DNA of 64,000 nucleotides from an uncultured bacterium. GTDB lineage: Bacteria; Bacillota_I; Bacilli_A; RFN20; CAG-826. Below are positions 10,161 to 64,000 of the stretch, piece after piece; the first letter of the stretch is position 1, and the number at the start of each line of letters is the position of its first letter. The translations under genes and the position numbers were made by a program. Location: assembly GCA_949284685.1 (NCBI GenBank), contig CASDWE010000002.1, positions 596,106 through 660,105 of the forward strand. The letters run 5' to 3'. The notes beneath the pieces were generated by a model. That model was not told the origin of the DNA. It worked only from the letters and a program-made list of their open reading frames with translations, and did not search any database.

Positions 10161-10220
10161 GTTTTACTATATTGACAAATTAAAACAGTTAATACAGAAT
10201 AAATATAAGGAATTTAATCT

Positions 10221-10837: not shown

Positions 10838-11419
10838 ATGGAGCAAATAGATATTTCATTGTTTGATTGTATATTAGATAAAGACGAATATATTATTAAA
10901 ACAATTCGTCCAAACAAAAAAAGATATTGTCTCGTGAGTCAATTCGGTTATTTTATAAACTTTATTTTATTTTTTGTTATTGCAATCATTTTTTTAGTAT
11001 TGTCACTTAATAGCATCGTTGAAATGGGTTTCTTTTATGTTATTATCGGGTTAAGCGCTGCAATTTTGTTAGCGTTTATATGGAATATTATTTATGTATT
11101 AGTTAGCTATAAAAAAACATTTTATGCATGCACAAATAAAAGAATTATTATTCGTTCAGGATTTATTGGTGTTGATTTTAAAACCTTAGATATCAATATG
11201 ATTGGTACTATAAATGTTAATGTTTCATTTCTTGATAAGTTGATGAAAAAGAATACAGGTAGAATATCATTTGGTTCACAATCTTCACCAATGATTAATT
11301 ATCAAAATAATTACGTAAACAGCTTTGCTTTTGTTTGTCTTGATAATCCTTACGATTTGTATAAAGAAATTAAAGAAATTATTGATAGAGTTAAAAAGCA
11401 AGAAAAGGAGAAAAATTAA
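10838..11419 (+). CDS. Membrane protein with a bacterial PH (bPH_2 / YdbS-YdbT-like) domain
   Basis: Two TM helices are followed by YACTNKRIIIRSGFIGVDFKTLDINMIG...ISFGS, the typical bPH_2 pattern. There is a GGAGG RBS. Confidence 0.5.
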   Translation: MEQIDISLFDCILDKDEYIIKTIRPNKKRYCLVSQFGYFINFILFFVIAIIFLVLSLNSIVEMGFFYVIIGLSAAILLAFIWNIIYVLVSYKKTFYACTNKRIIIRSGFIGVDFKTLDINMIGTINVNVSFLDKLMKKNTGRISFGSQSSPMINYQNNYVNSFAFVCLDNPYDLYKEIKEIIDRVKKQEKEKN

Positions 11420-11421
11420 TT

Positions 11422-48237: not shown

Positions 48238-48249
48238 GGAGGAAAGGCT

Positions 48250-49410
48250 ATGAAAATCCATAATATTCATATACATTTTGATTTTGGAAACTGTCTTGTG
48301 ATAAGAAACGATACTCCATTGCTTGATTGTTATCAAATCCAAAAAGATAATGCTAATGCAGCATTAATTGATAAAATTGAAAAAGAAACAAGTGGTAAGT
48401 TTGTATATTTCTTAATTGATATAAATCAAGCAAAGAACGTAAAAAGAAATATTTATATTGGAAAAACAAACAGCTTGATGAATCGAATTATCAGTCATAG
48501 AAAGAATAAAGACTGGTGGAATACGATTATCGTATTTGGTAACAAGTATTTATCTTCAGATGACATAGATGCTATTGAAAAGCTTCTTATTGAGGAATAT
48601 GAAAATTCTGATCTTTATACAATCAAAAATGATGTGGGATCTAATGCTAAATTAAGTGAGCAACATAATGATTATAGAGAATACATTGTTGATATTATGG
48701 ATTTTCTATCTTATGGAGTTACTAAAACTGTCATTACTCCTGAGACTAAAACTAATCAAGTGGTTATTCAAACAGCTGCTCAACCATTATCTAATTCTAG
48801 TAGACAAGAATCATTTAAATTTTCAATGTTAGATATAAAACCTGGTGAGATACTTTCATTTATTAACAATGATAAAGTAACTTGCGAAGTTGTTGATGAT
48901 AAGAATGTTAAATATAAAGGGAAGTTATATTCTTTAAGTTCTTTGGCAAAAGAATTATTGAATACTAATGTTCCTAAAAGAGGAACTGATTATTTTTTAT
49001 ATAAAGGTAAGACTTTAAGAGTTTTAAGAGATGAAAAGAATGGAATACAAGTTTCTGATGTTGAAAAAACTAATAATTGGATTATTTCTTGTAATAAAGA
49101 GTTCTATGATTTAGATAATGCATTAAACGAAATGAAAATTATTGATTTTAAACAAAATGCTAATGTTGAAGCTGGTAGTAAAGTATATATTTATTCATCA
49201 GGTGAAGATAAAAAATTAGTTTATATAACTGAAGCTGTTGTAGTTAATAAACCAGAACAGACTATAAATGACGATAAATATATAAAGAATAAGAGTGGTT
49301 ATGCTGATTCTAATAGATACATGGAACTTAAGCTAGTAAAAAAACTCGAATCTGATAAATTATCATTATCTGATTTAAAGAAAAATGGACTTAGAGGTAA
49401 CTTGCAATGA
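48250..49410 (+). CDS. GIY-YIG nuclease-family protein with a C-terminal extension (DUF4357-like), tentative
   Basis: FVYFLIDIN...NIYIGKTNSLMNRIISHRKN fits the GIY...YIG...R...H spacing. There is a GGGAGG RBS. Confidence 0.5.
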   Translation: MKIHNIHIHFDFGNCLVIRNDTPLLDCYQIQKDNANAALIDKIEKETSGKFVYFLIDINQAKNVKRNIYIGKTNSLMNRIISHRKNKDWWNTIIVFGNKYLSSDDIDAIEKLLIEEYENSDLYTIKNDVGSNAKLSEQHNDYREYIVDIMDFLSYGVTKTVITPETKTNQVVIQTAAQPLSNSSRQESFKFSMLDIKPGEILSFINNDKVTCEVVDDKNVKYKGKLYSLSSLAKELLNTNVPKRGTDYFLYKGKTLRVLRDEKNGIQVSDVEKTNNWIISCNKEFYDLDNALNEMKIIDFKQNANVEAGSKVYIYSSGEDKKLVYITEAVVVNKPEQTINDDKYIKNKSGYADSNRYMELKLVKKLESDKLSLSDLKKNGLRGNLQ

Positions 49411-49481
49411 CCTTGTAGAGTCCCTGTTGAATTACAAGCATATATAGATTTTATTATTAAGTAGAAAGGTGGTGAGACGAT

Positions 49482-51149
49482 ATGTCTTTATTTAAAGAAA
49501 AACCGATATTATTTGAAACAATGTACTTCAAAGGTGGAGATTATGCAGGTGCTTTCTTTTTAAAGAATGTCGTTGACAATCTTTCTTATATTGAAACAAC
49601 TTTATCTTCGTTTGATTACTCAATTAATTCTATTGAAGATTTGTTTGATTTTTTGTGGTTGTCAGACTTTATAGAGATGGCAAATGAATTAGATATATTT
49701 AAAATCGATGAGGATATTAAAACAAGAATTCGTAATCTTGCTGATTCTATATATACTAATCCAAAAGAGTTTATAAAGTTTATTAATAATGATCCTGAAT
49801 TGGTTTTTACAAAACAAAATATTAATAAACCAATGTATTGGCATCTTTACTTACCGAGAATGTTAAATCTATGCTTTAACAAATATTCAACATCATTGAG
49901 ACAAAATGTTTTTGACTTCATAGAAGAAAATCTATATTTGAATGTATTATCATCATTTGATGAGTACCAAAAGTATTATCTAAAACATAAAGAATCATTT
50001 AAAAAGTTATTTAATTCTTTGAAAGAAACCAGACCATTTGATGACCAGATTTATAAAAACTTTTTATTAAAAAAGAATGATATTATAGATCTCGAATTCT
50101 TAAAAGAACAAGCCACATTTATATGTGAAAGAGCATATGATGAAATAATAAAAATGGGGTTAGATTCAGAAAATAAAGAAATTATGCAAGCAGTTAATTT
50201 TTTTGATGAATATTATGAACTTGCTCGTTTTTATAAACTTAAATGTGCAAATAAATATAGTGCCTATAAACCAAAAATAGAAAAAGTGTTAAATGATTAC
50301 ATTGTTAAGCATGGTCAACATATGGATTTTGGTCCTATAGATTTAAAACCAGCGCTAGATATTTTTGAAAAATCAGATGATGTATATAGATTTTTTCAAC
50401 TAACACATAGCATGAAAGATGATAAATACTATAACAATTTAAATAATGTATTTGAAACTACTCCGCCTGATGGTTTATCAGAATTATTTCCACCGAGAGG
50501 TAAAGTTGGTAGTGAGAATTATCCTATCTATAGACAGGATCATATTGATTTATATCTTTCGATTAATTCGAGTATTTTAAATATGATAATAGTTCATCCA
50601 AAGTTATCTGTTGATTTTTCGAATTATATCGGTGCAATCTGCTCTCATGTTCAAACTAACTATTTTGATGATCAAATCAATATTTTCAAAGAAATCGGTG
50701 GAAGTTATGAGATGATTAGTAATCTTTATATGCTTAGAACAAAGAAGCAGAGTGACTCTTTATTGTATAAAGCATTATGTAACGGATGCTGTGTAAATTT
50801 ATGTGGAACCATTGAAAAGATACTAAGAAATATAATAATTAAAGAAGAATCAGACAATGTTTACATTGATGAAAGTAAACTCACATTAGGTCAAATTTTT
50901 AAAAGAACGCATAATTTATCATCAATTTCAAATGGTATTAAATACTATTTAAAATACATATTAATGACTGATGAAGAGACTTCACCAATAAAAGAAAAAA
51001 GACCAGGTAGGGATATAAGAAATTGGCAGATGCATAACGCAAATGATAAGTATGATAAAACAAGTTATCAATTATGCGTTGAACTATTCTATTTAACTAT
51101 ATCTCTTGTAGTTGATTTAGTTGTAGTATCGTTAAAATACGACGAGTAG
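49482..51149 (+). CDS. Hypothetical protein with a C-terminal HEPN-like Rx4H motif
   Basis: The 555-aa product has a C-terminal ...RPGRDIRNWQMHNANDKYD... (R-x4-H) motif, similar to the motif in the 58195 gene. Confidence 0.4.
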   Translation: MSLFKEKPILFETMYFKGGDYAGAFFLKNVVDNLSYIETTLSSFDYSINSIEDLFDFLWLSDFIEMANELDIFKIDEDIKTRIRNLADSIYTNPKEFIKFINNDPELVFTKQNINKPMYWHLYLPRMLNLCFNKYSTSLRQNVFDFIEENLYLNVLSSFDEYQKYYLKHKESFKKLFNSLKETRPFDDQIYKNFLLKKNDIIDLEFLKEQATFICERAYDEIIKMGLDSENKEIMQAVNFFDEYYELARFYKLKCANKYSAYKPKIEKVLNDYIVKHGQHMDFGPIDLKPALDIFEKSDDVYRFFQLTHSMKDDKYYNNLNNVFETTPPDGLSELFPPRGKVGSENYPIYRQDHIDLYLSINSSILNMIIVHPKLSVDFSNYIGAICSHVQTNYFDDQINIFKEIGGSYEMISNLYMLRTKKQSDSLLYKALCNGCCVNLCGTIEKILRNIIIKEESDNVYIDESKLTLGQIFKRTHNLSSISNGIKYYLKYILMTDEETSPIKEKRPGRDIRNWQMHNANDKYDKTSYQLCVELFYLTISLVVDLVVVSLKYDE

Positions 51150-51184
51150 TCTTGCATTTGTTTTTTATATTAATGAGGTAGAAT

Positions 51185-51901
51185 ATGAAATCATTGAATG
51201 AAATAAAGTTATCTATAATAGATGAATTATCTAAGAACAAAGCGTATGATTTACCAAATATATGTTCTGCACTAGGGTTGGAAGATGGTACTGAAAACGA
51301 AGCCTATAATAGTAAAAGAATGTATGTGAGTAAACGAATTAATCATCTTTCTAAAGTTGAAATAAATAAATTACTATATGCAATGAAAGAAAATTTTGAT
51401 ATTGACCTATTACCAGAAGAAAACTGTAACTTTGATAATCTAAAAAAAGTCTCTGAAGAAATAAATAGTGACTATATAAATGTACAAATAGAATTAATGA
51501 AAAAATTTCAAAAAGAAAATCCAACAGAGGCTATTGGTAAAGCGAAGGAACTTTTAGAAACTATTTGTAAAACCATTTTAAAAAGATTAAATATAGAATT
51601 CGATGAATCATGTGAAATCCAAGCCTTAGCAAAAGCAACTTATAAAGCCTTGAAATTATCTCCAGATGAAGTAAAGGATGGCCCTTTATCTCAAACAATA
51701 AAACAAATATTAGGTGGATTGAATAGTATTTCAAGTGGTTTGGCTAGTTTGAGAAACTCTTATGGAAGTGGACATGGCAAGGACGAAAGTTATAAGGGGC
51801 TTCCAGAAAGATATTCAAAGTTAGCAATTGGAAGTGTATCTACACTAGTGGTGTTTCTATGGGAAACAATGCTATATCAAATTGATAAAAATCAAGAGTA
51901 A
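51185..51901 (+). CDS. Abi_C-like abortive-infection protein (HEPN superfamily), tentative
   Basis: The C-terminal ...SSGLASLRNSYGSGHGKD... fits the Abi_C pattern R-N-x5-H-G. There is a GAGG RBS. Confidence 0.5.
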   Translation: MKSLNEIKLSIIDELSKNKAYDLPNICSALGLEDGTENEAYNSKRMYVSKRINHLSKVEINKLLYAMKENFDIDLLPEENCNFDNLKKVSEEINSDYINVQIELMKKFQKENPTEAIGKAKELLETICKTILKRLNIEFDESCEIQALAKATYKALKLSPDEVKDGPLSQTIKQILGGLNSISSGLASLRNSYGSGHGKDESYKGLPERYSKLAIGSVSTLVVFLWETMLYQIDKNQE

Positions 51902-52132
51902 ATAATTGTAGTGATTTTATTCTTAAACTTGCATTTAGTAGAAACTAATGGAATAAGTATGTTAAAACCTGTCGTTTGGGTGAAAAAAATAACATTAGCA
52001 AATTTAAGGTCAAATAACTGTAGAGTTATTGTAGGTTCAGTAAATTGATAAAATAACTCTTTTGTTATATAATTATACCGATAATCTAAAGTACCAGAAA
52101 GTTGAGGAAGGGCTCAAAGGAGGTACTTGTGT

Positions 52133-52363
52133 ATGGATTATCAAAAAGCCATATTAGATAAAGAAGCAACAAGTATTAAACTTAGGTCCCTTAGAATCAA
52201 AGCTAATCTAACACATGATAGACTAGCTGCATTACTTCAACTAAACACACCTCGTGTGATTTATGATTGGGAATGTGCAAAGAAGATGCCTAATGTTGAA
52301 AACTTGTATAATCTGGCTCTAATATTTAATATGAAAATGGAGGATTTACTTGTGACCAAGTAG
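52133..52363 (+). CDS. XRE-family helix-turn-helix transcriptional regulator
   Basis: The HTH_3 core LRSLRIKANLTHDRLAALLQLNTPRVIYDWECAKKMPNVENLYNLALIF is present. An AAGGAGG RBS lies 9 nt upstream of the ATG at 52133. The track's 52127 start is a TTG. Confidence 0.7.
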   Translation: MDYQKAILDKEATSIKLRSLRIKANLTHDRLAALLQLNTPRVIYDWECAKKMPNVENLYNLALIFNMKMEDLLVTK

Positions 52364-52672
52364 ATCCTTCTTTTTTATTTTTGAACTATAGTACATTTTT
52401 TATTCCTGGATTTATTGTTAAAATAATAACAGTATCTATGAATATGTCCGTTGATATTGAAATAAATTTCAATAATGTGATATAATTATATAAAGATACA
52501 TATGCAGGTTCTGAAACAGTGGAGTAAGAACTTTACCTATATGAAATGTTGGAACAAATCCTATGGTTGGGATATACCATATGAGGAGTAAACCAATAGT
52601 TAAAAGCTAATTTTCAAGAGTGGTATTGCGTGTCTAAACAAAATAACATAATAAGAGGAAGAATGTTATTGA

Positions 52673-52708
52673 AGTGGCGATAGGCTAATACCTACCGTCA
52701 CTTTTTTG
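52673..52708 (+). terminator. Intrinsic terminator (attenuator-like) at the end of a ~370-nt leader, 7 nt upstream of the operon RBS
   Basis: agtggcgatagg-ctaata-cctaccgtcact forms a 12-bp stem with one G-U pair and one mismatch, followed by TTTTTTG. The AAGGAGG RBS and the ATG at 52731 follow. Confidence 0.5.
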
Positions 52709-52730
52709 TATATAAGGAGGTGTCAATAAC

Positions 52731-53660
52731 ATGAAAAAGAAAAGCAAAGTCATCGGTAAAGACTATGATAAATTAGAAAAAGATAATAGATTCGATCAGA
52801 TTGATTATTATGGTCTTATTGCTAAAGATGGCAGAATTAAAATTGACACAAAGAGATATAAAAAATTCTTTACTATTCCTGATACTAAAATAGAAAGAAG
52901 ACAATCTGTTTATTACCTTCCAACAAAGCAACATAGATCCGATTATAAATGTAATTGGTTCAGAGATTTGTTAGCAGGTTATAAACAATTGTGGTTTAGA
53001 GAATATAAAAGTTTTATTGATAGCATTAAGACACCAAAGCAAGTAGAAGATAGTGCGAGATTAGATTATTTAGCTGATGGTGTTCTTGAGTACGATGAAG
53101 CTAATGCAAAAGCATTTATTGCAGGTATGAAAAGAAGTGCTGACTATAAAGTGATTATTAAATCTTTATATGCTCAATTCTTCCATCAAATGATGTCTAG
53201 CATTGATGCTTTATGTTTAAAGATGTTAACTGCCTGTGGTTATAAAGAAGAAGATTATACTAAGAAACAATTTGATATTTATATTCAAGGTTTGCAAGGT
53301 AATAATGCATTATCATTCAGACAATACGATAATTATCAATTATATGATAGAGCATTTACTGTTTGGAACTTCCTAAAGCATAACTCTCTTAGATCATATA
53401 AGATCTTGAAGCAATGGTATCCTAAAATGGTATGGGATCCAGAAGAGAAATATCAAAATGGTGAATCTGCACTTACTGTTGTTAAATTAGATGAGAAATT
53501 CATCTTAGATTGTATTGATAACTTACATTTATTCTTTGATGAATTATGTGCGAGAGCTTTTGGTGAAAATGCTGATGATGCACAATGGGATTATGATGAT
53601 TACTTCTTAGACGTCGTACAAGATGAAATAGATGTTATTGTTAATCCACTAGGTATATAG
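52731..53660 (+). CDS. Hypothetical protein, first gene of the helicase operon
   Basis: The 309-aa product has a strong AAGGAGG RBS and no recognisable catalytic motif. Confidence 0.45.
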   Translation: MKKKSKVIGKDYDKLEKDNRFDQIDYYGLIAKDGRIKIDTKRYKKFFTIPDTKIERRQSVYYLPTKQHRSDYKCNWFRDLLAGYKQLWFREYKSFIDSIKTPKQVEDSARLDYLADGVLEYDEANAKAFIAGMKRSADYKVIIKSLYAQFFHQMMSSIDALCLKMLTACGYKEEDYTKKQFDIYIQGLQGNNALSFRQYDNYQLYDRAFTVWNFLKHNSLRSYKILKQWYPKMVWDPEEKYQNGESALTVVKLDEKFILDCIDNLHLFFDELCARAFGENADDAQWDYDDYFLDVVQDEIDVIVNPLGI

Positions 53661-53672
53661 GAGGGCGGAAGA

Positions 53673-56600
53673 ATGGCATATTTATTTCTATCTTTTACTG
53701 ACAGATTGAATAATGGTTCTAATTTTAAAAGTGAATTATATAATCAATCTCTAACTGAACAATTTGAATATATCCAAAAAAGAATCCCTCTTGAAAGACA
53801 AGTTAGTAGCTTTAGATCATTTATAGAAGAATGCTTTACTACAGGAATGATGAAGAAATATTACATTTCTTGCCCTAACTTCTTAAGAGAAAAAGAATCT
53901 TCAAAAAGTGGTAAAGTGCAATATCTTGATAATGTAGTTGTACGTCCAGAATTAACTTTATCAATGAGAAAAGTGTTACCTGATAATCAAAACATAATTC
54001 TTATCGGTAAGATTGTAGAAGGTGGCAAACAAAAACATTTAGAGGTAAAAGGGATACAATTAATAGATTCCTCTATGTCTTCACCTAATGATATTGTTAT
54101 TTCTGCAGCTGCATGTAATTCATTTTCTGAAGAAAAAAGAGCAAGCATGTATGGTGGTACATTTGCTGTTAACATATGGTCGGTTCCAAATGTTCCTTAT
54201 GAAGATACTGTATTTACACCTAATTTTGTATATGAACTAATTCAATCATGCTGGACTGTATCTAAGCCAGAGCAAATTAGACAATCTTATGATATTTGGA
54301 ATAAATACATTGAATTTAGAAAGTACTATCTTCAAGAACAATCAAAGCGTAATTTTAAATTAGATAGAGCTATGTTTGTTGAAGCATATGCCGTCAATAG
54401 AAAAGACTACAAAAAGAATGCTTCAATTTATGATGAATATCTACTTGATGGACGAGATGAGTTTAAATGGGGAGATATGATTGTTTTATCTGAAAAGATA
54501 GAAGATGCTGAAGAATTCCCACTTATTAGATTAGATATTGAAAGAAATAGAAAAGCTTTTAATGAAGCTAAAGTTACAAAACGTGGAAAATTAGTTAATG
54601 AAGAAGAACGTAAGATTCGTTCATTATCTAGTGATAATGTATTTATTACTGCTATTGATCCTGAAAGTAAATCACAGCATAACGATAGACAGGTTACTTT
54701 TGGTGAATTATTAAATGCTGGATATGCATTAGGTGATAGATTTAAAATTGTTTCTTATGATATCGAACCTACTGAGCATTTAGAAGAATTAGATCAAGTA
54801 TATACAAAAGATATTGATAACTCATATAAAAATATAGATGCTAAGTTTGAAAAGATTATTAAAGAAGAAGTAAAACAAGCAGTTACTTTATATGAAAAAG
54901 AATTAAATAAACAAGCTAAAGAAAGAATTGATTCTTATAAAAATGAACTAGATAGTTCTTTAGAACAAGATGTTTTAGAAAATAAAGATAAAAATATTAT
55001 TAGTTTAATTGATAAAAAGAAAAAAGAAATTGAAGCTAATGTTAAAAAGAATAATAAACAAGATAAAAAAGAAAAAGATAATGAATATGCATTAAGAATA
55101 AAAGCGTTAATTGAAGATGAAATATCTAAAATTGATGTCAAGTCATATTATGTTGAAAGAAATTCTAAATTATTACAAGATAATGCGAATAAGATTGAAG
55201 TTGAACTAAAGAGATTATTGGCACAGTATGAAGTAAAAAAGAATTCTGAAATTACTAACAAATATAAAGATGATGTTAGAAATGAAAAGATTAAATCAAA
55301 AGAAGAACTTGATGCTAAGTTAAAGTCTGATAAAGAAAAAGCAATTGAAGAAGAAACAATTATTAGATTCTCGTTATATTTTAGATTAGGTGATTCTAAT
55401 AATTTTATTTCTGATAAGCAAAAAAAGGTTGTAGATTCTTGTGAATATATTGTTTATGATAATCGTGCTGAAAAGGCAAAGATATCAAGACAAGAAGCAG
55501 CTTTAGATAATTTCTATTCTGGATATGTTAAGAATCCATATCTTTCAACATATCTTTTTAATCCTGAAGAATTAGATACTGTTAAAGCTGAACCTAGCGA
55601 TTGGATATGGTATTTAGATTCTCTTAATGAAAAGCAAAAAGAGGCTGTAAGAAAAGCAGTTTCAAGTAACGGTATATTCTTACTTCAAGGTCCTCCAGGA
55701 ACTGGTAAAACACAAGTAATTGCTGAAACAGTAGCTCAGTTAATTAAAAAAGGTAAGAAGGTATTAATTTCATCAGAAACTCATAAGGCAATTGATAATG
55801 TATTTGAAAGATTACCTAAGATTGCTGAAATTGTACCTATTAGATTAATTCCTTCTAATAATGATAAAAAGAAAGAAAACGAATATGATCCAAAATTCCT
55901 AGTAGATAATTTCTATTTAAATATTTCTTCTAATATGAAGAAAGCTGTTAATAGATATAAGAATTTTGAAAAGAACAAAATAGAATTTGCTGAAAACTTT
56001 GATAAATTAAAGTTGGCAAAAGCCAAAATAGAAAAATCTCAAAAGGTTTTAGATAAGGCTAACGAAGAAATCAAAAAGTTTGAAGACAATGCTAAAGACA
56101 TTAATTCTAAGATATCAGTATTAAATGATAAAAAGGACTTGGTCAGAATTGATATTGATATCTTAAGAAGAACTAAACGTCATATTGAAAATGATAATTT
56201 GAGACCTGATGAAGATGTAAAGGTTGACTTGATTGTTGATGTAAGAAAGAAACTAGAACCTTTATTTGAAAAAGATGTTTATATCGATGATGATTTAGGC
56301 CAATTATTAAAAAATATTAATTTAATTAAAAATGATGAAATAGAACGTGAGTTAGCAGTCATTAATCCTGAATCCAATAAAACTATTCTTGAAGTTAAGA
56401 AAAATGATTTAAAGGCTGAATTAAATAAATATGTTGATGAATTGGGAGACATTATTAATCCTAATAATGAAGAAAAAGTTGAAGAAATTAAAAATGAATT
56501 AAGAAAGGTTTTAAAAGAACTTAAGGCTGAATCAGTTGACATATCTTTAAGCGATTTAAAACTTAATAAGATTTTTAATTATTCATATTTAGTTGCTAAT

Positions 56601-58202
56601 ATTTCTCTAATTCCAGAAGTTATTAGAACTGTAAAAGATAGAATTATTGAGATTAAATCTTCAACGATAGAAGTTCTTAATAAAGAATTACGTACTATTG
56701 AAGATAAACAAGCAGAACTAGATAAAGAAATAGATTCATTAAAGCAACAAATAAAAGTAATTAATGAAAATATTATTGATATTCAAGAAAGAAATGATGT
56801 TAAAGATATTCAAGAAGCTAAATACAAGCTTGAGAATGATTTAATAAAATTCTTTAAAGATTTTGAAATTGCTGAACCATATAGAGATGTAGATGAAGGT
56901 CTAAAGATTATTAAACGTAAATGGTCTGAGCTTGAAGATGATTTCCAAGCGAAAGAACAAGAAAATAGAGAAAAAATACCTATGTATGAAAAGATCGCAA
57001 ATTACATCACTAGTGAAGATGTAATTGAAGAAGATAGAAAGGTATTTACTAAAGACTTGTTTGAAAATGCTAATGTATTTGGTATTACATGTACATCTAA
57101 CGATAGATTCAGTGGAAGAAATGTTGATGCATTATCTGAATATAATATCGATGAGATTGATATTAAGTCTGTAGGTATTGATGTAGTTATTATTGACGAA
57201 GTTTCTAAATCAAGTTTTATAGATTTATTGATACCTATTCTTTATGGTAAAACAGTTATTCTAGTTGGAGACCATAGACAATTACCTCCAATGTATGAAT
57301 TCTCAAAATTAAGAGATGATGATTTTGAAGGATTAGATGAGACAATTATTAATAAAGAAATTAATAAAGAGTTCACTAAATTGTATGAAGAGTGTTTCTT
57401 CAAAACTCTATTTGAAAGAATACCAGATAGTTATAAAACTATGTTAGTTCAACAATATAGATGTCATGAACATATTATGAATGTATTTAACCATTTCTAT
57501 AAAGGCGAATTAAAACTAGGTTTTGCAGGTCAAAACAATAATAAACATCATAATGTTAAATTACTATCAAATGGTAGAAATATTATCGAACCAGATAAAC
57601 ATATTTATTTTGTTGATTGTAAGCAAAATGAAACGCATGAAGCTGATTCAACATCTATGTACAATACTGGTGAAGCTAGAGTTGTAGTTGAATTAATCAG
57701 AAAATTAAATACATACTTTAAATCGCATCCTGAACTTGAAAAGTTAAGCATTGGTGTTATTTGTACTTACGGAGACCAAGCTAGAAAAGTAAAAGAATTA
57801 CTTAAGAGTGAAAAGGTTAAAACTGATGCATTTAAAACTGACGTTGAAAAGATGATAGTCTCTACAGTCGATGATTTCCAAGGCGATGAAAGAGATATTA
57901 TTATCTTGACTACAGTTAGAAATCCTGAGAATCCAAAAAGAAGTAATCCTGGATTCATCTTGGCTTATCAAAGAATTAATGTTGCCTTATCTAGAGCTAG
58001 AAGAATGCTTGTTATGGTAGGTAATAGAAAATACCTAGAAGAAAAAGGTGTGATAGATCTACCAGATGTCTATGGTCGTGTTGGTAAAGAGCAACGAAAC
58101 TTTAGAGTTTATGAAGAAATCCTATCTACTATTGAACGATATGGTAAGGTCATTGAGGATATTGATGTATTAGATGATAAGGAGGCGAGAATAAATGGAT
58201 AA
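53673..58202 (+). CDS. Giant Upf1/DNA2-like superfamily-1B helicase (1509 aa) with an unassigned ~640-aa N-terminus and a ~500-aa Lys/Glu coiled-coil insertion
   Basis: Motif I is LLQGPPGTGKTQ and motif II is VVIIDEVSKSSF. VGDHRQLPPM is motif III and QYRCHEHI is motif IV. VSTVDDFQGDERDIIILTTVR and YQRINVALSRARRMLVMVGN are motifs V and VI, the AAA_11/AAA_12 architecture. There is a GGAGGG RBS. Confidence 0.8.
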   Translation: MAYLFLSFTDRLNNGSNFKSELYNQSLTEQFEYIQKRIPLERQVSSFRSFIEECFTTGMMKKYYISCPNFLREKESSKSGKVQYLDNVVVRPELTLSMRKVLPDNQNIILIGKIVEGGKQKHLEVKGIQLIDSSMSSPNDIVISAAACNSFSEEKRASMYGGTFAVNIWSVPNVPYEDTVFTPNFVYELIQSCWTVSKPEQIRQSYDIWNKYIEFRKYYLQEQSKRNFKLDRAMFVEAYAVNRKDYKKNASIYDEYLLDGRDEFKWGDMIVLSEKIEDAEEFPLIRLDIERNRKAFNEAKVTKRGKLVNEEERKIRSLSSDNVFITAIDPESKSQHNDRQVTFGELLNAGYALGDRFKIVSYDIEPTEHLEELDQVYTKDIDNSYKNIDAKFEKIIKEEVKQAVTLYEKELNKQAKERIDSYKNELDSSLEQDVLENKDKNIISLIDKKKKEIEANVKKNNKQDKKEKDNEYALRIKALIEDEISKIDVKSYYVERNSKLLQDNANKIEVELKRLLAQYEVKKNSEITNKYKDDVRNEKIKSKEELDAKLKSDKEKAIEEETIIRFSLYFRLGDSNNFISDKQKKVVDSCEYIVYDNRAEKAKISRQEAALDNFYSGYVKNPYLSTYLFNPEELDTVKAEPSDWIWYLDSLNEKQKEAVRKAVSSNGIFLLQGPPGTGKTQVIAETVAQLIKKGKKVLISSETHKAIDNVFERLPKIAEIVPIRLIPSNNDKKKENEYDPKFLVDNFYLNISSNMKKAVNRYKNFEKNKIEFAENFDKLKLAKAKIEKSQKVLDKANEEIKKFEDNAKDINSKISVLNDKKDLVRIDIDILRRTKRHIENDNLRPDEDVKVDLIVDVRKKLEPLFEKDVYIDDDLGQLLKNINLIKNDEIERELAVINPESNKTILEVKKNDLKAELNKYVDELGDIINPNNEEKVEEIKNELRKVLKELKAESVDISLSDLKLNKIFNYSYLVANISLIPEVIRTVKDRIIEIKSSTIEVLNKELRTIEDKQAELDKEIDSLKQQIKVINENIIDIQERNDVKDIQEAKYKLENDLIKFFKDFEIAEPYRDVDEGLKIIKRKWSELEDDFQAKEQENREKIPMYEKIANYITSEDVIEEDRKVFTKDLFENANVFGITCTSNDRFSGRNVDALSEYNIDEIDIKSVGIDVVIIDEVSKSSFIDLLIPILYGKTVILVGDHRQLPPMYEFSKLRDDDFEGLDETIINKEINKEFTKLYEECFFKTLFERIPDSYKTMLVQQYRCHEHIMNVFNHFYKGELKLGFAGQNNNKHHNVKLLSNGRNIIEPDKHIYFVDCKQNETHEADSTSMYNTGEARVVVELIRKLNTYFKSHPELEKLSIGVICTYGDQARKVKELLKSEKVKTDAFKTDVEKMIVSTVDDFQGDERDIIILTTVRNPENPKRSNPGFILAYQRINVALSRARRMLVMVGNRKYLEEKGVIDLPDVYGRVGKEQRNFRVYEEILSTIERYGKVIEDIDVLDDKEARING

Positions 58203-60327
58203 GTTTAAATTAGAAACTTCTATGCAATTTCCATTCTTTAAATTGAATGAACTTGCTATATATTCAGAAGTTAAAAAGCCTAGTGGTGTAGCCTATATTT
58301 TACTAGTACTTATCAGTGAGTCAAAAAATAAAAATGATAGATTATCTAAAGTGCTAGAGAATTTTGGTATACCTAAATCTTTACATTATATTTTTGCTGA
58401 TAATGTTCAATACCTTATGAATCAGGGAATACTAGAAGAATTTAACTTTTACAAAACTGAATTTGATAGTTATCTTATAGGATCATTTCAATTTACTTCA
58501 AAAGGTAAAAAAATATTTGCAGAAGAATCTATTCCTACAGGTGTTAATAAAGAATTAAAGGTTGCAGTCTTTTATGATATTGCAATGAATGCATTATCTT
58601 TAAAAATGGATGTTGATTTAGATCCTAAACCATTAATGGACTGTGCAATTACACCTGAATTTATGAATTCATTTAAATGTGAAAAGAATGTAGAAAATTT
58701 CTTAAACCTTCAAAAAGGTAAAGGAATAGGCATAAAGAAAGAAGAAATAATTACTAGCGTAGAGTTATTAAATCAAGAAAATTGGATTGGAAAATATGAT
58801 TGTGACATGAATATCAAAGGCGATGATATAGAAATCAAATTTGATGAAGCGTTACTACAAAAATTCTTTGATGCTAATTACAATCAAGAAATGGTTAATT
58901 TAGCCATATCATATAAAAACAAGTTCAAGTTTAAATCTTCTTTTAAAGATAATCTAAAACTAAGTAGTTATGGTTTTGATAGAATTGCTGGAATTATTAT
59001 TCCAAAAGAAATTGATGATGTGTTAAAGCAAAAAAATCAATTATTACTTACAAAAGGTAATTATAAAACTTCAAATGGTTATATGGTTACTAGTGCTGAT
59101 TCACTTGCTGGATTTGATGATACAATTGAATTCATACAAGTTGATATGCATGATTCGATTTATGCATATATTCCAGGCAACTTTAATTTTAATAATAGTA
59201 TATTTGGAACTATTACAATTCCTTTGGCTGTTAAAATTAAACTAACTGATGAGGAATTGAAAAATGTTATTAGACCATATGTACTTTCTTTATCTTCATA
59301 TAGCGAAGATAACTTTAGAGAGCTTGTTAAGGTAACAAATATCACTGATGACTTAAAGTTAGCAAAAGAGATTATTGAAGGTTATGTTAATAAAAATGCA
59401 GAAAGCAATATTGTCTTGTTAAATGAAATGAAGCCATATGCAATATCTAATGGTGGTATTTCAAATATCTATAGAGAGCTATTAGAAAAGAACTATAACA
59501 ATTATATGGATAATTTAACTGAAGACAATCTTGAAACAGCATTAAAGATAACTGCTTCAGTTCCTAAATTCCTAAATATTCCAAATAAGGACGTTTTATC
59601 TAAAATCTTTAAGAATGTAAAGGCTAGAAGTGAATTGAAGATTTATGAAACTTTAGTAAATAAAGGATTTGATAAATCACTAGTTGTTCTATATGTTAAC
59701 CCAGTAAATGAAATACTTAAGTTGAGAGATTCTGAAGAGAAGAGTCTTATTGATTTAATTAATTATGATGATGCTTTGGAAGAAATGAAACGCATAACAA
59801 ATATAAGTGATTATAAGAGTTATTTGTATGATGAAGAAAAGATAAATCATAATGAATTTAAAACAAATTATAACAAAGCATTCAATCTTCAAAAGAATAT
59901 TTTAGTGTTTAAAAATGGCAATGAAGCATTATTTGCAAATTATGATGGTTTTATGAAGCTGTTCTCTACAATTAATGATGATATTAATATGGTTGAGTCA
60001 GCTCTTAAAAATCCTAATAATCTGAAACTAGATTTAATTGAAAAGAAAATATCTAGTGGTGAATATCAATTTGTATTTGTTAATCTATCTGCAAAATTAG
60101 AAACAATTCTTAAAAACAAGTATAAATTAGAAGGTAAATTATCTGACATGCTAAATGATGCAAGATCTAATGGTATAATCGATAAAAAGATTGTCAGTGA
60201 TTTGCATGATTTTAGAGATAACAGAAATGCAAATGTTCATCCTGAAGATAGAACGTCTAACTATGATGCAAATGATCTCAGAAGATGGGCAAAAGAAATC
60301 TTTGATTTGGAGGTGAAAAAGAAATGA
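58195..60327 (+). CDS. Hypothetical 710-aa protein with a C-terminal HEPN-like (DUF4145-type) Rx4H motif
   Basis: The C-terminal ...LHDFRDNRNANVHPEDRTSNYD... (R-x4-H) is present. There is an AAGGAGG RBS. It overlaps the helicase gene by 8 nt. Confidence 0.45.
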   Translation: MDKFKLETSMQFPFFKLNELAIYSEVKKPSGVAYILLVLISESKNKNDRLSKVLENFGIPKSLHYIFADNVQYLMNQGILEEFNFYKTEFDSYLIGSFQFTSKGKKIFAEESIPTGVNKELKVAVFYDIAMNALSLKMDVDLDPKPLMDCAITPEFMNSFKCEKNVENFLNLQKGKGIGIKKEEIITSVELLNQENWIGKYDCDMNIKGDDIEIKFDEALLQKFFDANYNQEMVNLAISYKNKFKFKSSFKDNLKLSSYGFDRIAGIIIPKEIDDVLKQKNQLLLTKGNYKTSNGYMVTSADSLAGFDDTIEFIQVDMHDSIYAYIPGNFNFNNSIFGTITIPLAVKIKLTDEELKNVIRPYVLSLSSYSEDNFRELVKVTNITDDLKLAKEIIEGYVNKNAESNIVLLNEMKPYAISNGGISNIYRELLEKNYNNYMDNLTEDNLETALKITASVPKFLNIPNKDVLSKIFKNVKARSELKIYETLVNKGFDKSLVVLYVNPVNEILKLRDSEEKSLIDLINYDDALEEMKRITNISDYKSYLYDEEKINHNEFKTNYNKAFNLQKNILVFKNGNEALFANYDGFMKLFSTINDDINMVESALKNPNNLKLDLIEKKISSGEYQFVFVNLSAKLETILKNKYKLEGKLSDMLNDARSNGIIDKKIVSDLHDFRDNRNANVHPEDRTSNYDANDLRRWAKEIFDLEVKKK

Positions 60328-61412
60328 GCCAGCAAGTAACTGTTGATTACCAAGGTGTATCTATTCAAGTGCAAGCTAAATGTGATACAGCTGTTCATTC
60401 GCTATGTCAAATAGATAAAGTGCTTGATAGAATACATAAAACAGCAGATAAGCTAGAAACATCAAAAGTAAAAGAATATGAAGCTTATTTGCAAAAATCC
60501 AAGGAAACAATCAAAGAAAAGATTGAAGCGTTTAAGAAGACTCTAGAAAAATATAAAGAAGCTAGGGCTTATTCGGTTAATAATCATCAACCAGATTATC
60601 AACAATTCATTAATTTTACTAATAAAGTTCAAGCTGAATCACAAGAATTAATTAGAACAGTAAATGAGTTAACTGGTTCTAAACTTGCAGTAATTGATCA
60701 GATGATTGATGAAGGATTATTAAATGCTGGACAAGAAACTACTCAAGCTATGCTTGATAAATTACATGGTGTTATTTCGATTTCAGATGATGTTTTATTA
60801 AAGATTAATAGTATAGAAGATGTTTCATTAAGAGAATTAGCTTATAGAGAAATTCTTAAAAATGATAAACTTAGTTTTGATGAAGCAATTACTAAAGCAC
60901 AAGAAGAATATGATGTTCTCTTAGGTAAACAAACAAAGAAAGTTATTCAAGAATATAAAGAAGAACTTACTGCTAAGGGTATTACTGTTGAAGAATTAGA
61001 TAAAGCTAAATCTATTGATGAAGCTAATGCTATTGCTAATGAAGCAATTACTGATGAAACAGTAAGAAAAGAAACTTTAAAAGTTATTATTAAAGCAATC
61101 AAAGATAGAGGATTCATTGTTGATACAAAGAAGAATCTTAAAATCGATAAAGAAAGAAATATTGTTAAGCTTGTTGCATTAAAGGCATCTGGACAAATGG
61201 CTGAATTTGAAATTCAACTTAATGGTAAGTTTATGTACCACTTTGATGAATATGAAGGTCATGCATGTAAGAAAGATATAGAACCATTCTTAGAAGATTT
61301 AAAGAATATCTACGATATCAATATTCTTCATGAAGAAGTAACGTGGGAAAATCCAGATAAGATTCAAACTCAAAAATATCAATACATAAACAAAAATAAG
61401 GGTACTAATTAG
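60324..61412 (+). CDS. Hypothetical coiled-coil protein (362 aa), possible partner of the downstream ClpB-like ATPase
   Basis: There is a GGAGG RBS and a 4-nt overlap with the upstream gene. It has no catalytic motif. Confidence 0.4.
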   Translation: MSQQVTVDYQGVSIQVQAKCDTAVHSLCQIDKVLDRIHKTADKLETSKVKEYEAYLQKSKETIKEKIEAFKKTLEKYKEARAYSVNNHQPDYQQFINFTNKVQAESQELIRTVNELTGSKLAVIDQMIDEGLLNAGQETTQAMLDKLHGVISISDDVLLKINSIEDVSLRELAYREILKNDKLSFDEAITKAQEEYDVLLGKQTKKVIQEYKEELTAKGITVEELDKAKSIDEANAIANEAITDETVRKETLKVIIKAIKDRGFIVDTKKNLKIDKERNIVKLVALKASGQMAEFEIQLNGKFMYHFDEYEGHACKKDIEPFLEDLKNIYDINILHEEVTWENPDKIQTQKYQYINKNKGTN

Positions 61413-61423
61413 GAGGTAAACAT

Positions 61424-63238
61424 ATGTCTTTACAAAATAGTTTTAATAAAATCAGAAGAAATGCTGGAATTAAAAAATGTGTCATGATTGATGGCAATGT
61501 TGGTGACGTTTATTTAAATGAAAAAAATAATATCGTCACATTAAGAGAATATCTTGAAGCAATGTTCAAAGATATGGATTATCAAGACATTGTTTACTGG
61601 GATAGAGTTGAAGGTGCAACTGGTGCAATTGATAAGCTTACTTTAACAGATGAAGTTGAAGTAGAAGGTGATGCATATGATTTAGGTGATGAAGAAGAAA
61701 CACCTAAAGCACAACAAGGCTTATTTAAATCACCAGCTGAAATCTTAAATGTTGTTTATAAGAATGTAATTGATAAAAAGAAAAAAGTAGCTTTTATTAT
61801 CAATTGGTCTGAATATTTATTCAGTGTTAATGGGTTAAGCGATGATGAAAGACAAAATATTACTTTATTAGGTAAAGCTCTAAAGGATAGAAAAGTAGAT
61901 TATTTAAACACTGACTGCAACGAAAGTGTTGTTGTCATTATTTTAAATAAAGCGTCTGGATTACCATTATCTTTCTATCAAGGAAATCCTGAAGTTGAAA
62001 TTGTAACATTACAAAAACCAGATAGAGAAGAAAGAAAACAAATGATTCAAAAGATAGAAGATTCATTTGAAGTTAGATTAAAATCTGGTACTAGCTCATT
62101 GCTTGATAATGAAAATATCGATTGTATTGATATGCTTGAAGATTTCACTAATCGTGAGATTATTCAATTATCAAGAATGTCTAGAAAAGAAGATAAGATG
62201 ACTTTTGATAAGTTATTCTATTTATTCAAATATGGTGAAAAAGAAAATCCATGGGAAAAATTAGAACAATCTAGAGTTAAGAATATCAAAAAAGAATTAT
62301 CTGACAGAGTTATAGGTCAAGAAGAAGCAATTGATAAAATTGAAAAGACTGTTGTTAAAGCATATATGGGTTTAACAGGCCTTCATAAAACTTCATCTAG
62401 ATCAATGCCAAAAGGTGTATTCTTCTTTGTTGGTCCTACTGGTGTAGGTAAAACTGAGCTTTCAAAGGCTTTAGCTAAATTCTTATTTGGTGATGAACAA
62501 GCTTGTATTAGATTTGATATGTCTGAATATGCTCAAGAGAATAGTGATCAAAAATTAATTGGTGCAGCTCCTGGATATGTTGGATATGAAGAAGGTGGCC
62601 AATTAACTAATGCAATTAAAGAACATCCATTCTCAGTTGTATTATTTGATGAAATTGAAAAGGCTGCAAAACCTAATCCACGTATTCTAGATATTTTCTT
62701 ACAAATTCTAGAAGATGGTCGTTTAACAGATTCTAAAGGTGAAACTGTATACTTCAGCGACACAATTATAGTATTCACATCTAACTTGGGTGCTAACCAA
62801 GTTCAAGCATCATCTGATAAAGAAGGTGTAGCAAAAGAATTCATTAAGATTGTAAAAGATTACTTTGATAATGAATTAAAGAGACCAGAATTATTAGGAC
62901 GTATCGGATACAATAATATCGTTCCATTTAATTTCATTCAAGATAGAGATTTCCAAGTTAAGATTTGTAAGAACAAACTAAAACCAGTTATCAGGGGAAT
63001 AGAAGAAAAATATAAACTTGAATTGGAATTTGAGAAAGAATTGGAAGCTATCGAATATATCTTAAAAGCTGTAGATTCATCTAAAGGTGGTCGTGATATT
63101 TTAAATGCTATCAATGATAGATTATTAGATCCACTAGCAATGTTCTTATTTGAAAATAAAGATGAATTACGTTCTTTAAAAGGAAGCAGAATTATTACAA
63201 AGGTAACAAAAGATGGATTCAGCTTTGACTTCGATTAA
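61424..63238 (+). CDS. ClpA/ClpB-D2-like AAA+ ATPase with an unassigned ~300-aa N-terminal domain
   Basis: RVIGQEEAI...FFFVGPTGVGKTELSKALA...LIGAAPGYVGYEEGGQLT...VVLFDEIEKAAKPNPRILDIFLQILEDGRLTDSKG...VFTSN is the canonical ClpB second nucleotide-binding domain, with sensor and D2-small domain. There is an AGGAGG RBS. Confidence 0.75.
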   Translation: MSLQNSFNKIRRNAGIKKCVMIDGNVGDVYLNEKNNIVTLREYLEAMFKDMDYQDIVYWDRVEGATGAIDKLTLTDEVEVEGDAYDLGDEEETPKAQQGLFKSPAEILNVVYKNVIDKKKKVAFIINWSEYLFSVNGLSDDERQNITLLGKALKDRKVDYLNTDCNESVVVIILNKASGLPLSFYQGNPEVEIVTLQKPDREERKQMIQKIEDSFEVRLKSGTSSLLDNENIDCIDMLEDFTNREIIQLSRMSRKEDKMTFDKLFYLFKYGEKENPWEKLEQSRVKNIKKELSDRVIGQEEAIDKIEKTVVKAYMGLTGLHKTSSRSMPKGVFFFVGPTGVGKTELSKALAKFLFGDEQACIRFDMSEYAQENSDQKLIGAAPGYVGYEEGGQLTNAIKEHPFSVVLFDEIEKAAKPNPRILDIFLQILEDGRLTDSKGETVYFSDTIIVFTSNLGANQVQASSDKEGVAKEFIKIVKDYFDNELKRPELLGRIGYNNIVPFNFIQDRDFQVKICKNKLKPVIRGIEEKYKLELEFEKELEAIEYILKAVDSSKGGRDILNAINDRLLDPLAMFLFENKDELRSLKGSRIITKVTKDGFSFDFD

Positions 63239-63767
63239 GTTTAATGTAGCATATATAAAATTATGTACTAAAACTGAAGGTCCATATAAGAGATGCTGTA
63301 TTTGGTTTCAAGGATGTAACATTAATTGTAGAGGATGTTGTAATAACGATTTACAACCATTAGTTCCAAATCATATAGTTACATTAAAAGAACTTATCGA
63401 TATAGTTAAAGAAGCTAAAGATAAGTTTGATATAGAAGGTATAACTCTTAGTGGTGGTGAACCTTCTTTACAAACTGGTTTAAAATTCTTCAATAATGAA
63501 ATTCATAAATTAGGATTAGGAATTATTATGTTTTCAGGAAAAAATAAACAACTTCTTGACAAAGAACTAGTTGAATCTGTTGATTTATTAATAGATGGTC
63601 CATTTATTGAAGAACAACTTGATGATAAAAGAGTTTTATTAGGTTCTAAAAATAAACGATTATCTTTTATTACTGATAGATATAAAAAAGAAGAAAATTA
63701 TTTCAATAATCCTATAGCTATAGAAGAAGTAACAGCTGAGGATTATATCTTCATAAATGGAGACTGA
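63213..63767 (+). CDS. Small radical-SAM / 4Fe-4S activase-like protein (NrdG/QueE-like)
   Basis: The cluster motif FQGCNINCRGC is CX3CX2C. ITLSGGEP (SAM-binding) is present. The 184-aa size is typical of NrdG-type activases. Confidence 0.7.
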   Translation: MDSALTSIKFNVAYIKLCTKTEGPYKRCCIWFQGCNINCRGCCNNDLQPLVPNHIVTLKELIDIVKEAKDKFDIEGITLSGGEPSLQTGLKFFNNEIHKLGLGIIMFSGKNKQLLDKELVESVDLLIDGPFIEEQLDDKRVLLGSKNKRLSFITDRYKKEENYFNNPIAIEEVTAEDYIFINGD

Positions 63768-63769
63768 TT

Positions 63770-64000
63770 ATGGATAAAAAGAGAATAGAAAGTGAAATGA
63801 GAGAATTAGAACTTAAAATTCATTATCATTTCAATGACATATCTTGGCTTGCTAAAGCTATGGGTTCTATAAAAGTACCTGTTCCAGGTCAAGGAAAGAA
63901 TGGTTCTGAATATTCTAATGAAGGCTTGGCTACTGTTGGTGATACTATATTAAAATCAGTTATTGCTGATAAGTTTTATAGAGAAGGAATAAGAACCAAA
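63770..64000 (+). CDS. Divergent RNase III-like protein, N-terminal 77 aa; the gene continues beyond the window
   Basis: LELKIHYHFNDISWLAKAMGS...SEYSNEGLATVGDTILKSVIADKFYREG aligns with the RNase III N-terminal LxxxLGYxFxDxxLLxxALTHxS...NERLEFLGDAxLxxVVxxxLY. The ERLEFLGD signature has diverged to EGLATVGD. The ATG is 2 nt after the radical-SAM stop. Confidence 0.6.
   Translation, partial: MDKKRIESEMRELELKIHYHFNDISWLAKAMGSIKVPVPGQGKNGSEYSNEGLATVGDTILKSVIADKFYREGIRTK

Follow-up and report, generated by a model that had tools for sequence, protein, structure and literature searches.

What is a radical S-adenosylmethionine (SAM) protein of 184 residues doing at the end of a putative defense operon, two nucleotides upstream of a gene for an RNase III-like protein? 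The question is raised by a 64,000-nucleotide (nt) stretch of DNA from an uncultured bacterium of the CAG-826 lineage (contig CASDWE010000002.1), the whole of which we call the window; coordinates are given on the window, and L-numbers denote the related loci compared with it. The first-pass annotation, made from the window alone, had read the two genes as a dedicated pair, with viperin-like production of nucleotide analogues as one possible function. The present analysis suggests instead that the radical-SAM protein is an activase-type enzyme fixed at the end of a mobile five-gene core, where its steady partner is a ClpB-like AAA+ ATPase, and that the RNase III-like gene is a probable accessory exchanged independently of that core. 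The claims made here at the level of architecture, that is, which genes make up the cassette, how they are ordered and coupled, which domains they encode, and that the whole is mobile, are held with high confidence. The overall explanation that we consider best, in which an activase-type radical-SAM enzyme would work within an RNA-targeting defense cassette on a macromolecule handled by the AAA+ ATPase, we judge to be somewhat more probable than its contrary.

The radical-SAM open reading frame (ORF) is tightly coupled to both of its neighbors. Its start lies within the ClpB-like ORF (61424–63238), giving an overlap of 26 nt, and its TGA stop codon (63765–63767) is followed by tt and then by the ATG (63770) of the RNase III-like ORF, with a GGAG 7–10 nt 5′ of that ATG. 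The protein carries the cluster motif C35-x3-C39-x2-C42 (FQGCNINCRGC) and SGGEP at residues 80–84; in these particulars, namely the length of 184 amino acids (aa), the CX3CX2C and GGEP motifs, the overlap with the ClpB-like gene, and the 2-nt spacing before the RNase III-like ATG, the first-pass annotation was correct throughout. Because the ORF matches Pfam families (Fer4_12, 8.6e-23; Radical_SAM, 1.8e-10), has 348 database homologues at E <= 1e-5, and is conserved from Bacillota to Proteobacteria, it is judged to be a genuine gene.

By several measures the protein resembles the compact activases, as had been proposed. In a ranking of hidden Markov models (HMMs), NrdG comes first (63.5 bits), followed by NrdG2 (59.2) and PflA (54.9), well above MoaA, QueE (24), and viperin (22), with every score under its curated cutoff. 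For the activase equivalog models TIGR02491, TIGR02495, TIGR02826, and NF008335, scores and cutoffs are 63.5 and 126.1, 59.2 and 131.15, 39.5 and 151.7, and 46.9 and 199; for the PflA model, TIGR02493, the cutoff is 231.75. The QueE model TIGR03963 gives 24.1 bits against a cutoff of 260.1, and the viperin model NF038283 gives 22.3 against 180, from residues 33–123 of the 184 only; a PADLOC match to prokaryotic viperin (pVip; 7.7e-07) likewise spans only the generic radical-SAM core. The HMM comparison thus bears out the likeness to NrdG and PflA and goes against membership of the QueE and viperin families. The suggestion of viperin-like chemistry thus gains no specific support, in view of the score and of the size of the protein, which has no nucleotide-binding C-terminal domain.

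Structural comparison leads to the same group of enzymes. When a profile of the family was compared with solved structures, the pyruvate formate-lyase (PFL)-activating enzyme (PFL-AE) alone was matched (3C8F, 3CB8; E 4.6e-07), and the fold of an AlphaFold model of modest confidence (predicted local distance difference test score, pLDDT, 64) was matched first to PFL-AE (E 3e-06, template modeling score 0.55) and second to Bacillus subtilis QueE. The protein is of the same size class as NrdG (~150–200 aa), with the same single CX3CX2C site, and an alignment with NrdG of phage CC31, the gene for which stands beside nrdD, reveals common GPxxR, GCx3CxGCxN, GxTxxGGxP, D...DG, and GSxN motifs along its length. 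The NrdG-type catalytic motifs (the three cluster cysteines, GGEP, the GxTxxGG SAM motifs, and GSxN) are invariant across phyla. Unlike NrdG, however, the window protein reaches half of the curated cutoff, has no NrdD nearby, is always found in a helicase/AAA+ cassette, and bears a C-terminal extension of ~30 aa that is absent from NrdG and present in the radical-SAM protein of a second cassette type, type B, described below. PflA (PDB 3C8F, 3CB8, 8FO0) is the closest solved structure both by profile and by fold. The N-terminal GPxxR loop, which in the PFL-AE structure contacts the substrate, is common to both proteins, whereas the window protein is shorter (184 vs. 245 aa) and has neither an RVxGY motif in its neighbor proteins nor a PFL-like partner. 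The surrounding family, collected in an exhaustive search of 1.84 billion representatives, comprises 838 clusters at E <= 1e-10, mostly of 180–220 aa, and all nine members that were scored against the NrdG model (9/9) fell below its cutoff. Two family members are longer, and one of them, P0292, bears an ArcS-like domain in its N-terminal part, the part that was scanned; these relatives are 36–38% identical to the window protein.

In class III ribonucleotide reductase, the glycine that NrdG activates lies in a C-terminal RxCGY motif of NrdD. A glycyl-radical partner was reported as absent from view in the first-pass annotation, and this still stands: a tblastn search with the NrdD of phage CC31 found no match in the window and ~135 related loci save one in L047, PFL-type glycyl-radical enzymes not having been separately searched. 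The glycyl-radical motif R[VI]xG[YF], sought with the regular expression R[VITLC]xG[YFW] on alignments of every family, is conserved in no cassette protein family. The sequence GRIGYNN of the ClpB-like protein was considered as a glycyl-radical site and rejected as a chance resemblance, its spacing being wrong for RVxGY; it occupies the place of the NRID arginine-finger motif of ClpB. We class the radical-SAM protein as a compact enzyme of the NrdG/PflA type that lacks a glycyl-radical-enzyme partner. The match in L047 (12548–13745; tblastn 6e-15) lies 2–3 kb 3′ of a degenerate cassette end on the chromosome of a Clostridium sp., and may be a housekeeping nrdD that is a neighbor by chance.

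The genes that do accompany the radical-SAM gene form a fixed cassette. When the window proteins were mapped onto 44 species-level genome loci with relatives of the radical-SAM protein, the genes for the helicase, g710, g362, the ClpB-like protein, and the radical-SAM protein were found in the same order in every locus whose flank was long enough, with helicase identities of 38–100%. The cassette occurs in gut and rumen Bacilli/RF39, Acholeplasma-like bacteria, Erysipelotrichaceae, and Clostridia known from metagenome-assembled genomes (MAGs), as well as in Succinimonas and Ruminobacter. By way of full-length ClpB-like homologues, the five genes were also traced to four proteobacterial plasmids, those of Polaromonas naphthalenivorans (pPNAP02), Acinetobacter (pNDM1_010055), Leisingera, and Photobacterium. 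Since there are plasmid copies in Proteobacteria, the cassette extends across phyla and beyond anaerobes, and these four copies rule out the anaerobes-only distribution that would be expected of glycyl-radical chemistry. In cassette loci and plasmids, the radical-SAM gene overlaps or abuts the ClpB-like gene, and the pair is kept, in reversed order, in a third architecture on the Aristaeella lactis plasmid NZ_CP069422.1 (L146; 17926–35671), which reads DUF4011 helicase, Ser/Thr kinase, hypothetical protein, FHA protein, radical-SAM protein, ClpB-like protein, phosphatase, DUF6273 protein, kinase. From this recurrent linkage, the steady partner of the radical-SAM protein is taken to be the ClpB-like AAA+ ATPase, which is also the most conserved protein of the cassette (80–100% identity where the helicase has 54–92%). 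In Pseudomonas aeruginosa, the defense hotspot cDHS1 is bordered by core genes for a DUF4011 helicase and a radical-SAM protein (PMC10250203). One Bacilli MAG (L051; JBKWUX010000002.1, 673748–694260) has the cassette in fragments, as numerous short ORFs with pieces of the helicase and AAA_2 among them; either this copy has decayed or the long-read assembly is rich in frameshifts. Genes for Mob_Pre, a recombinase, and a type I S subunit lie 3′ of it.

The domain content of the other core products points to RNA and to protein remodeling (Table 1). The Upf1-like superfamily 1 (SF1) helicase, kept in every full cassette, has AAA_11 (1.4e-28) and AAA_12 (2.5e-43) domains, and its C-terminal helicase part matches the PADLOC model MkoA (3.1e-93). 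In the predicted effector g710, the DUF4145 domain (PF13643; 4e-05, 24 bits vs. a gathering score of 23.1) covers residues ~629–694 (window ~60079–60276), and its R-N-x3-H motif, of the Rx4-6H type that marks HEPN RNases, is invariant in 30 homologues; DUF4145 belongs to the HEPN families (PMC3710099). In the proteobacterial plasmids, the equivalent of g710 by position ends not in HEPN but in PIN_4 (7.3e-24, 1.5e-19), and such a swap of predicted RNase domains at a fixed position would be typical of a defense effector. Because HEPN and PIN are exchanged in the effector slot and the helicase is Upf1-like, an RNA target is indicated. Within its conserved C-terminal domain, g362 has an invariant loop, Y310-x-G312-x-x-C315-x-x-D318; homology of g362 to the 247-aa "MSC..." protein of the type-B cassette was considered and rejected (hhalign probability 0.2, not significant). 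The ClpB-like ATPase (AAA_2, 2.6e-51) covers positions 552–849 of the 853 in the ClpB profile and matches PDC-M37B (1.1e-33) and DolB (1.1e-20) in PADLOC. Because its Walker A (GPTGVGKT), Walker B (FDEIEKA), and GYVG pore-loop (APGYVGYEEGG) motifs are intact, its expected action is the threading or remodeling of proteins. Sequence searches of the PDB with g710, g309, and the N-terminal domain of the ClpB-like protein gave no match, and g309 matches nothing in Pfam, NCBIfam, or PADLOC. The g309 gene precedes the helicase gene in 11 genome loci (48–93% identity) and is 89% identical in the type-B cassette L059.

Table 1. Genes of the cassette and its accessories in the window
Feature	Coordinates	Strand	Description
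Xre-like helix-turn-helix (HTH) ORF	52127..52363	+	78 aa; HTH assigned by eye; upstream "bookend" with g309
g309	52731..53660	+	309 aa; optional first gene of the unit; function unassigned
Upf1-like SF1 helicase (MkoA-like)	53673..58202	+	1509 aa
g710	58195..60327	+	710 aa; predicted effector; C-terminal HEPN-type (DUF4145) RNase domain
g362	60324..61412	+	362 aa; N-terminal half coiled-coil; C-terminal alpha/beta domain conserved
ClpB-NBD2-like AAA+ ATPase	61424..63238	+	604 aa; 270-aa N-terminal domain, function unassigned
Radical-SAM gene	63213..63767	+	184 aa; NrdG/PflA-type; last gene of the core
RNase III-like gene	63770..64000	+	first 77 codons in the window; full protein 166 aa, nuclease domain only, no double-stranded RNA-binding domain (dsRBD)

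PADLOC and NCBIfam recognize this cassette piecemeal, the helicase as MkoA and the AAA+ protein as DolB and PDC-M37B, and membership of the corresponding systems fails: no cassette protein matches MkoB, the PLD protein of Mokosh type I, and none matches the DolA or PDC-M37A of Dodola/PDC-M37. All of these are helicase- or ATPase-based, but in the window cassette a HEPN/PIN protein, g362, and a radical-SAM protein come in addition. Its surroundings are those of defense genes. Directly upstream (47275–51901) lie genes for PDC-S31 (DUF2971; 2e-26), a PDC-S57/S14-like protein (7.6e-26), and an AbiJ-like/Abi_C protein (6.6e-26), and because these adjoin the unit, the 3′ third of the window is read as a defense island; other loci have restriction-modification genes, Abi_2, and recombinases nearby. 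In the Acinetobacter plasmid pNDM1_010055 (L137:11718–13222), the cassette is followed immediately by a thymidylate-kinase-like gene and a gene for a 328-aa radical-SAM protein, which matches "viperins associated with kinases" (1.1e-11); since this kinase–pVip pair abuts the cassette as a separate unit, two different defense candidates that carry radical-SAM proteins are adjacent there. The pVips and the window protein have in common that they are radical-SAM proteins in defense islands, but the latter is ~100 aa shorter than the ~280–300 aa of a viperin, is without the C-terminal nucleotide-binding region, and belongs to a five-gene operon rather than standing as a single gene or beside a kinase. 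Among radical-SAM enzymes, the viperins alone have, to our knowledge, an established antiviral role in bacteria. A search of the accessible literature turned up no account of the cassette. Given its occurrence in defense islands and on plasmids, its movement between phyla, and the lack of such an account, the cassette is probably an undescribed RNA-targeting anti-phage system, in keeping with the RNA-directed defense island of the first-pass annotation, a theme to which Upf1-like helicase, HEPN/PIN domains, and RNase III-like and exonuclease add-ons all belong.

The RNase III-like ORF (MDKKRIESEM...SNEGLATVGD...) exits the window end, and the remaining 3′ sequence was obtained from other contigs. 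The exact radical-SAM protein of the window occurs on eight public contigs; six loci were fetched, and in all six the downstream gene encodes 166 aa (complete at L001:10558–11058). A terminator-like hairpin lies ~165 nt 3′ of its stop codon (L001:11222–11246), and after ~650 nt of noncoding DNA comes a gene for an AAA_14/DUF4143 ATPase. Neither smc nor ftsY is present 3′ of the gene in the recovered flanking sequence, and a cysS–rlmB context is also absent. Because the hairpin and the AAA_14/DUF4143 gene, not smc–ftsY, are found downstream, the gene is judged not to be the housekeeping rnc, as had been suspected from its diverged signature; and an island boundary at 63769, which had been tied to the opposite outcome, does not hold, the operon continuing through the RNase III-like gene. 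The model scores accord with this: PF00636 gives 28.4 bits, only narrowly above its gathering score of 27, whereas the rnc model TIGR02191 gives 34 bits against a cutoff of 166.25, over profile positions 4–143 of 219, the nuclease part only. The predicted nuclease domain is common to rnc and the RNase III-like protein, which reads L-A-x-x-G-D where rnc has L-E-F-L-G-D. In a family alignment of 22 sequences (A3), the equivalents of Escherichia coli E38, D45, and E117 (E51, D58, and E134) are conserved, D58 and E134 invariantly; the equivalent of E41 is Ala; and D-x-x-E is replaced by an invariant H-D-P-Y-x-E, which puts the D114 equivalent one residue off in Dicer/RNase III alignments. Mini-III (MrnC), an active endonuclease on double-stranded RNA, has the L-A-x-x-G-D motif and no dsRBD; since the same traits fit this active enzyme, the residue changes are no argument for an inactive protein. 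No match to the Mini-III model was found in NCBIfam, and the context is a mobile defense cassette, not cysS–mrnC–rlmB, so that the protein is best described as a predicted Mini-III-style, domain-only nuclease. The combination of a helicase with an RNase III recalls the domain make-up of Dicer, by analogy only.

The distribution of the RNase III-like gene does not fit a dedicated pair with the radical-SAM gene, as had been proposed. Of the 37 genome loci in which the sequence extends far enough downstream, it is present in only 8; in the 29 others, including otherwise identical cassettes, it is absent, and the 3′ genes are often on the opposite strand or unrelated. Where it is present, it varies independently of the core: in L126, the ClpB-like and radical-SAM proteins are 100% and 94% identical to those of the window, yet the RNase III-like protein is 64% identical, and L134 and L135 are alike in this respect (59–64% behind near-identical cores). 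Conversely, the RNase III-like gene of L059 is 96% identical in nucleotides to that of the window but stands behind an unrelated core. In these two loci the same "bookends," the HTH ORF with g309 on one side (L059:1088–2691 vs. window 52060–53664; 85% nt identity) and the RNase III-like gene on the other (63770–64000; L059:10001–10535), enclose wholly different cores. The inner similarity breaks exactly at the g309 stop codon and the RNase III-like ATG, and the outer similarity ends ~670 nt 5′ of g309 and ~35 nt 3′ of the RNase III-like stop. The enclosed type-B core (L059:2700–10001, 7.3 kb; also L065 and L100) encodes proteins of 388, 139, and 124 aa, a classical AAA ATPase that is IetA-like in PADLOC (3.7e-31), proteins of 727 and 247 aa, and a 190-aa NrdG-like radical-SAM protein that is ~30% identical to that of the window and scores 110 bits against the TIGR02491 cutoff of 126. 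Apart from the ATPase and the NrdG-like protein, no type-B core protein has a family match. Type B may be regarded as a second candidate system in which an AAA ATPase and a radical-SAM protein likewise occur together.

The RNase III-like gene also occurs away from radical-SAM genes. In L054, L055, and L131 it stands (10001–10498) before a gene for an SF1 helicase with DUF2726 (10619–13675), a domain with the fold of restriction-endonuclease nucleases; this module of two or three genes, also found in L052 and L053, sits in a restriction-modification/AbiH island with no radical-SAM gene nearby. Elsewhere the RNase III-like gene follows housekeeping genes (MiaB-like, TrkH, SDR) on its own. A second optional 3′ accessory is a gene for a 189-aa DEDDh (RNase T/DnaQ-like) exonuclease (PF00929, 24.5 bits; PF21762, 27 bits), which lies between the radical-SAM and RNase III-like genes in L107, L109, L110, and L115–L117 and after the RNase III-like gene in L070 and L074, with a further copy at L051:8884–9453. 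We conclude that the RNase III-like gene encodes a predicted accessory nuclease that is optional, is exchanged independently of the core, and is carried by about one-fifth of the cassettes and by other helicase or AAA+ cassettes. When metagenome loci were collected with the RNase III-like protein as seed (80 loci, not independent samples), most of them had the cassette upstream, and a deep branch is among these (helicase 38%, radical-SAM protein 48% identity). In five IMG/VR contigs classified as viral (L139–L143), the RNase III-like gene stands behind a radical-SAM gene, and four of the five extend further into the cassette.

How might the radical-SAM protein act in such a cassette? By homology to the glycyl-radical activases, it would bind one [4Fe-4S] cluster and SAM and generate a 5′-deoxyadenosyl radical, which would take a hydrogen atom from a macromolecular substrate. 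That substrate would most likely be a protein of the complex, presented or remodeled by the AAA+ ATPase; a protein is favored because the constant partner is a threading AAA+ with an intact pore loop and because the GPxxR loop of the activases is kept. The invariant Y310-x-G312-x-x-C315 loop of g362 would be the best candidate. The HEPN/PIN RNase may be turned on, or licensed, by this modification, with the helicase meanwhile engaging foreign RNA, and the RNase III-like add-on, where present, may extend cleavage to double-stranded RNA. This protein-substrate mechanism is put forward tentatively. Its more specific form, in which the ClpB-like and radical-SAM proteins make up a module whose radical chemistry on a protein of the immune complex (for example, a glycyl or thiyl radical, a modification, or a cleavage at the g362 loop) arms the HEPN/PIN RNase, seems to us possible but rather unlikely. 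The nearest published idea, by analogy of composition, is that of the FtsH ternary systems, predicted conflict systems in which an AAA+ protein accompanies a standalone radical-SAM effector, a predicted modifier of peptides or proteins (Kaur et al. 2020, eLife, PMC7159879). Those systems combine MoxR, vWA, and a double FtsH-type AAA+ protein, whereas none of these was detected in the cassette.

Several observations weigh against this explanation. The cassette proteins show no canonical glycyl-radical motif, so that a classical pair of activase and substrate is not visible among them, and the structural model of the radical-SAM protein is of modest confidence (pLDDT 64). The candidacy of g362 derives from its invariant loop, and the defense role is predicted from the domains encoded and from the genes nearby. 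The radical-SAM and AAA+ genes are not neighbors in the type-B cassette, and on Geminocystis pGM01 (L144; 27598–29595), a full-length ClpB-like homologue (33% identity) follows a pair of HigB and a regulator, with no radical-SAM gene detectable near it. Among the 80 loci seeded on the RNase III-like protein, 65 have a radical-SAM gene upstream within ~1.7 kb, including the divergent type-B form; there may therefore be some functional link between the two proteins, and the order may exceed modular shuffling. Finally, the relatives with an ArcS-like fusion plausibly point to RNA-base chemistry of the RaSEA kind over protein chemistry.

The last two points belong to an alternative in which the radical-SAM protein works on RNA or nucleotides: it would mark host RNA or tRNA to spare it from the HEPN/PIN and RNase III-like nucleases, a restriction–modification logic transferred to RNA, or damage or alter the RNA or nucleotides of the invader in the manner of RaSEA or viperin, and the RNase III-like protein, where present, would be its true partner. 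RaSEA is a small radical-SAM protein that works only in complex with ArcS and, with it, on tRNA-preQ0-Lys (PMC11298593), and the likeness in description, a small radical-SAM protein with a partner, is reinforced by P0292. The window locus has no ArcS, TGT, or 7-deazaguanine genes. Moreover, the other enzymatic parts, from the Upf1-like helicase and HEPN/PIN domains to the RNase III-like and DEDDh add-ons, appear to be RNA-directed, QueE is the second-best structural match, the PADLOC match to pVip is of the same tendency, and the 65 upstream radical-SAM genes include one type only ~30% identical to that of the window. However, the QueE and viperin scores lie far below their cutoffs, the pVip match is limited to the generic core, the protein has no detectable RNA-binding domain and no added substrate-binding domain beyond its ~30-aa tail, its constant partner is an AAA+ of the protein-unfoldase type, and 29 of the 37 cassettes do without the RNase III-like gene. 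We regard an RNA or nucleotide substrate as possible, although the probability is against it.

It is improbable, in our view, that the radical-SAM fold serves as a sensor or regulator, with the [4Fe-4S]/SAM site reporting redox state or SAM depletion (for example, by phage SAM lyases) and gating the AAA+ ATPase and the nuclease. Such a role would agree with the lack of a substrate motif in any partner, with the small size of the protein, with its tight coupling to an ATPase more conserved than itself, and with the occurrence of the cassette in aerobes and strict anaerobes alike; but motifs of the NrdG catalytic type are invariant across phyla, as for an active enzyme, and no precedent was found in the literature searched.

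Distinctly improbable is the proposal that the RNase III-like gene, the HTH ORF, and g309 are not parts of the system but the resident flanks of an integration hotspot that takes alternative cassettes. The window and L059, which have only the bookends in common around wholly different cores, would be explained in this way, as would the solitary RNase III-like genes behind housekeeping genes. Yet the outer flanks of the two loci differ, the RNase III-like gene varies behind near-identical cores, and the spacing between the radical-SAM stop and the RNase III-like ATG is 0–9 nt even where the radical-SAM proteins are 30–50% identical, which fits one operon and not random insertion. Synteny of hotspot flanks by way of the DUF2971 gene was also considered and rejected, the gene of L084 being only 45% identical to that of the window. 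That the two genes are simply a housekeeping nrdG, the activase of the class III ribonucleotide reductase, and the rnc or Mini-III gene of the cell is hardly conceivable, for although NrdG is the best HMM and an RNase III nuclease domain is encoded downstream, both proteins are far below the curated cutoffs, nrdD, smc–ftsY, and cysS–rlmB are missing from the neighborhood, the genes are inherited with a mobile cassette on plasmids of aerobes, and the RNase III-like gene comes and goes among near-identical cassettes.

With a radical-SAM activase acting beside an AAA+ ATPase as the preferred explanation, the cassette would place a second class of radical-SAM enzyme, unrelated to the viperins, in putative bacterial defense: one of the activase type, fixed and translationally coupled in a transferred cassette that ranges from gut Bacillota to plasmids of alpha-, beta-, and gammaproteobacteria. 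The RNase III-like gene, for its part, provides a case of a domain-only RNase III apparently recruited as a mobile accessory beside SF1 helicases. If the cassette protects against phages, its plasmid versions in aerobes would offer a tractable system for studying the part of radical chemistry in immunity, as well as a way to study the cooperation of an AAA+ unfoldase with a Upf1-like helicase and a swappable HEPN/PIN RNase. Furthermore, if the AAA+ and radical-SAM proteins do form a protein-radical module, this would bring a novel principle to prokaryotic antiviral immunity, unlike the nucleotide chemistry of the viperins.

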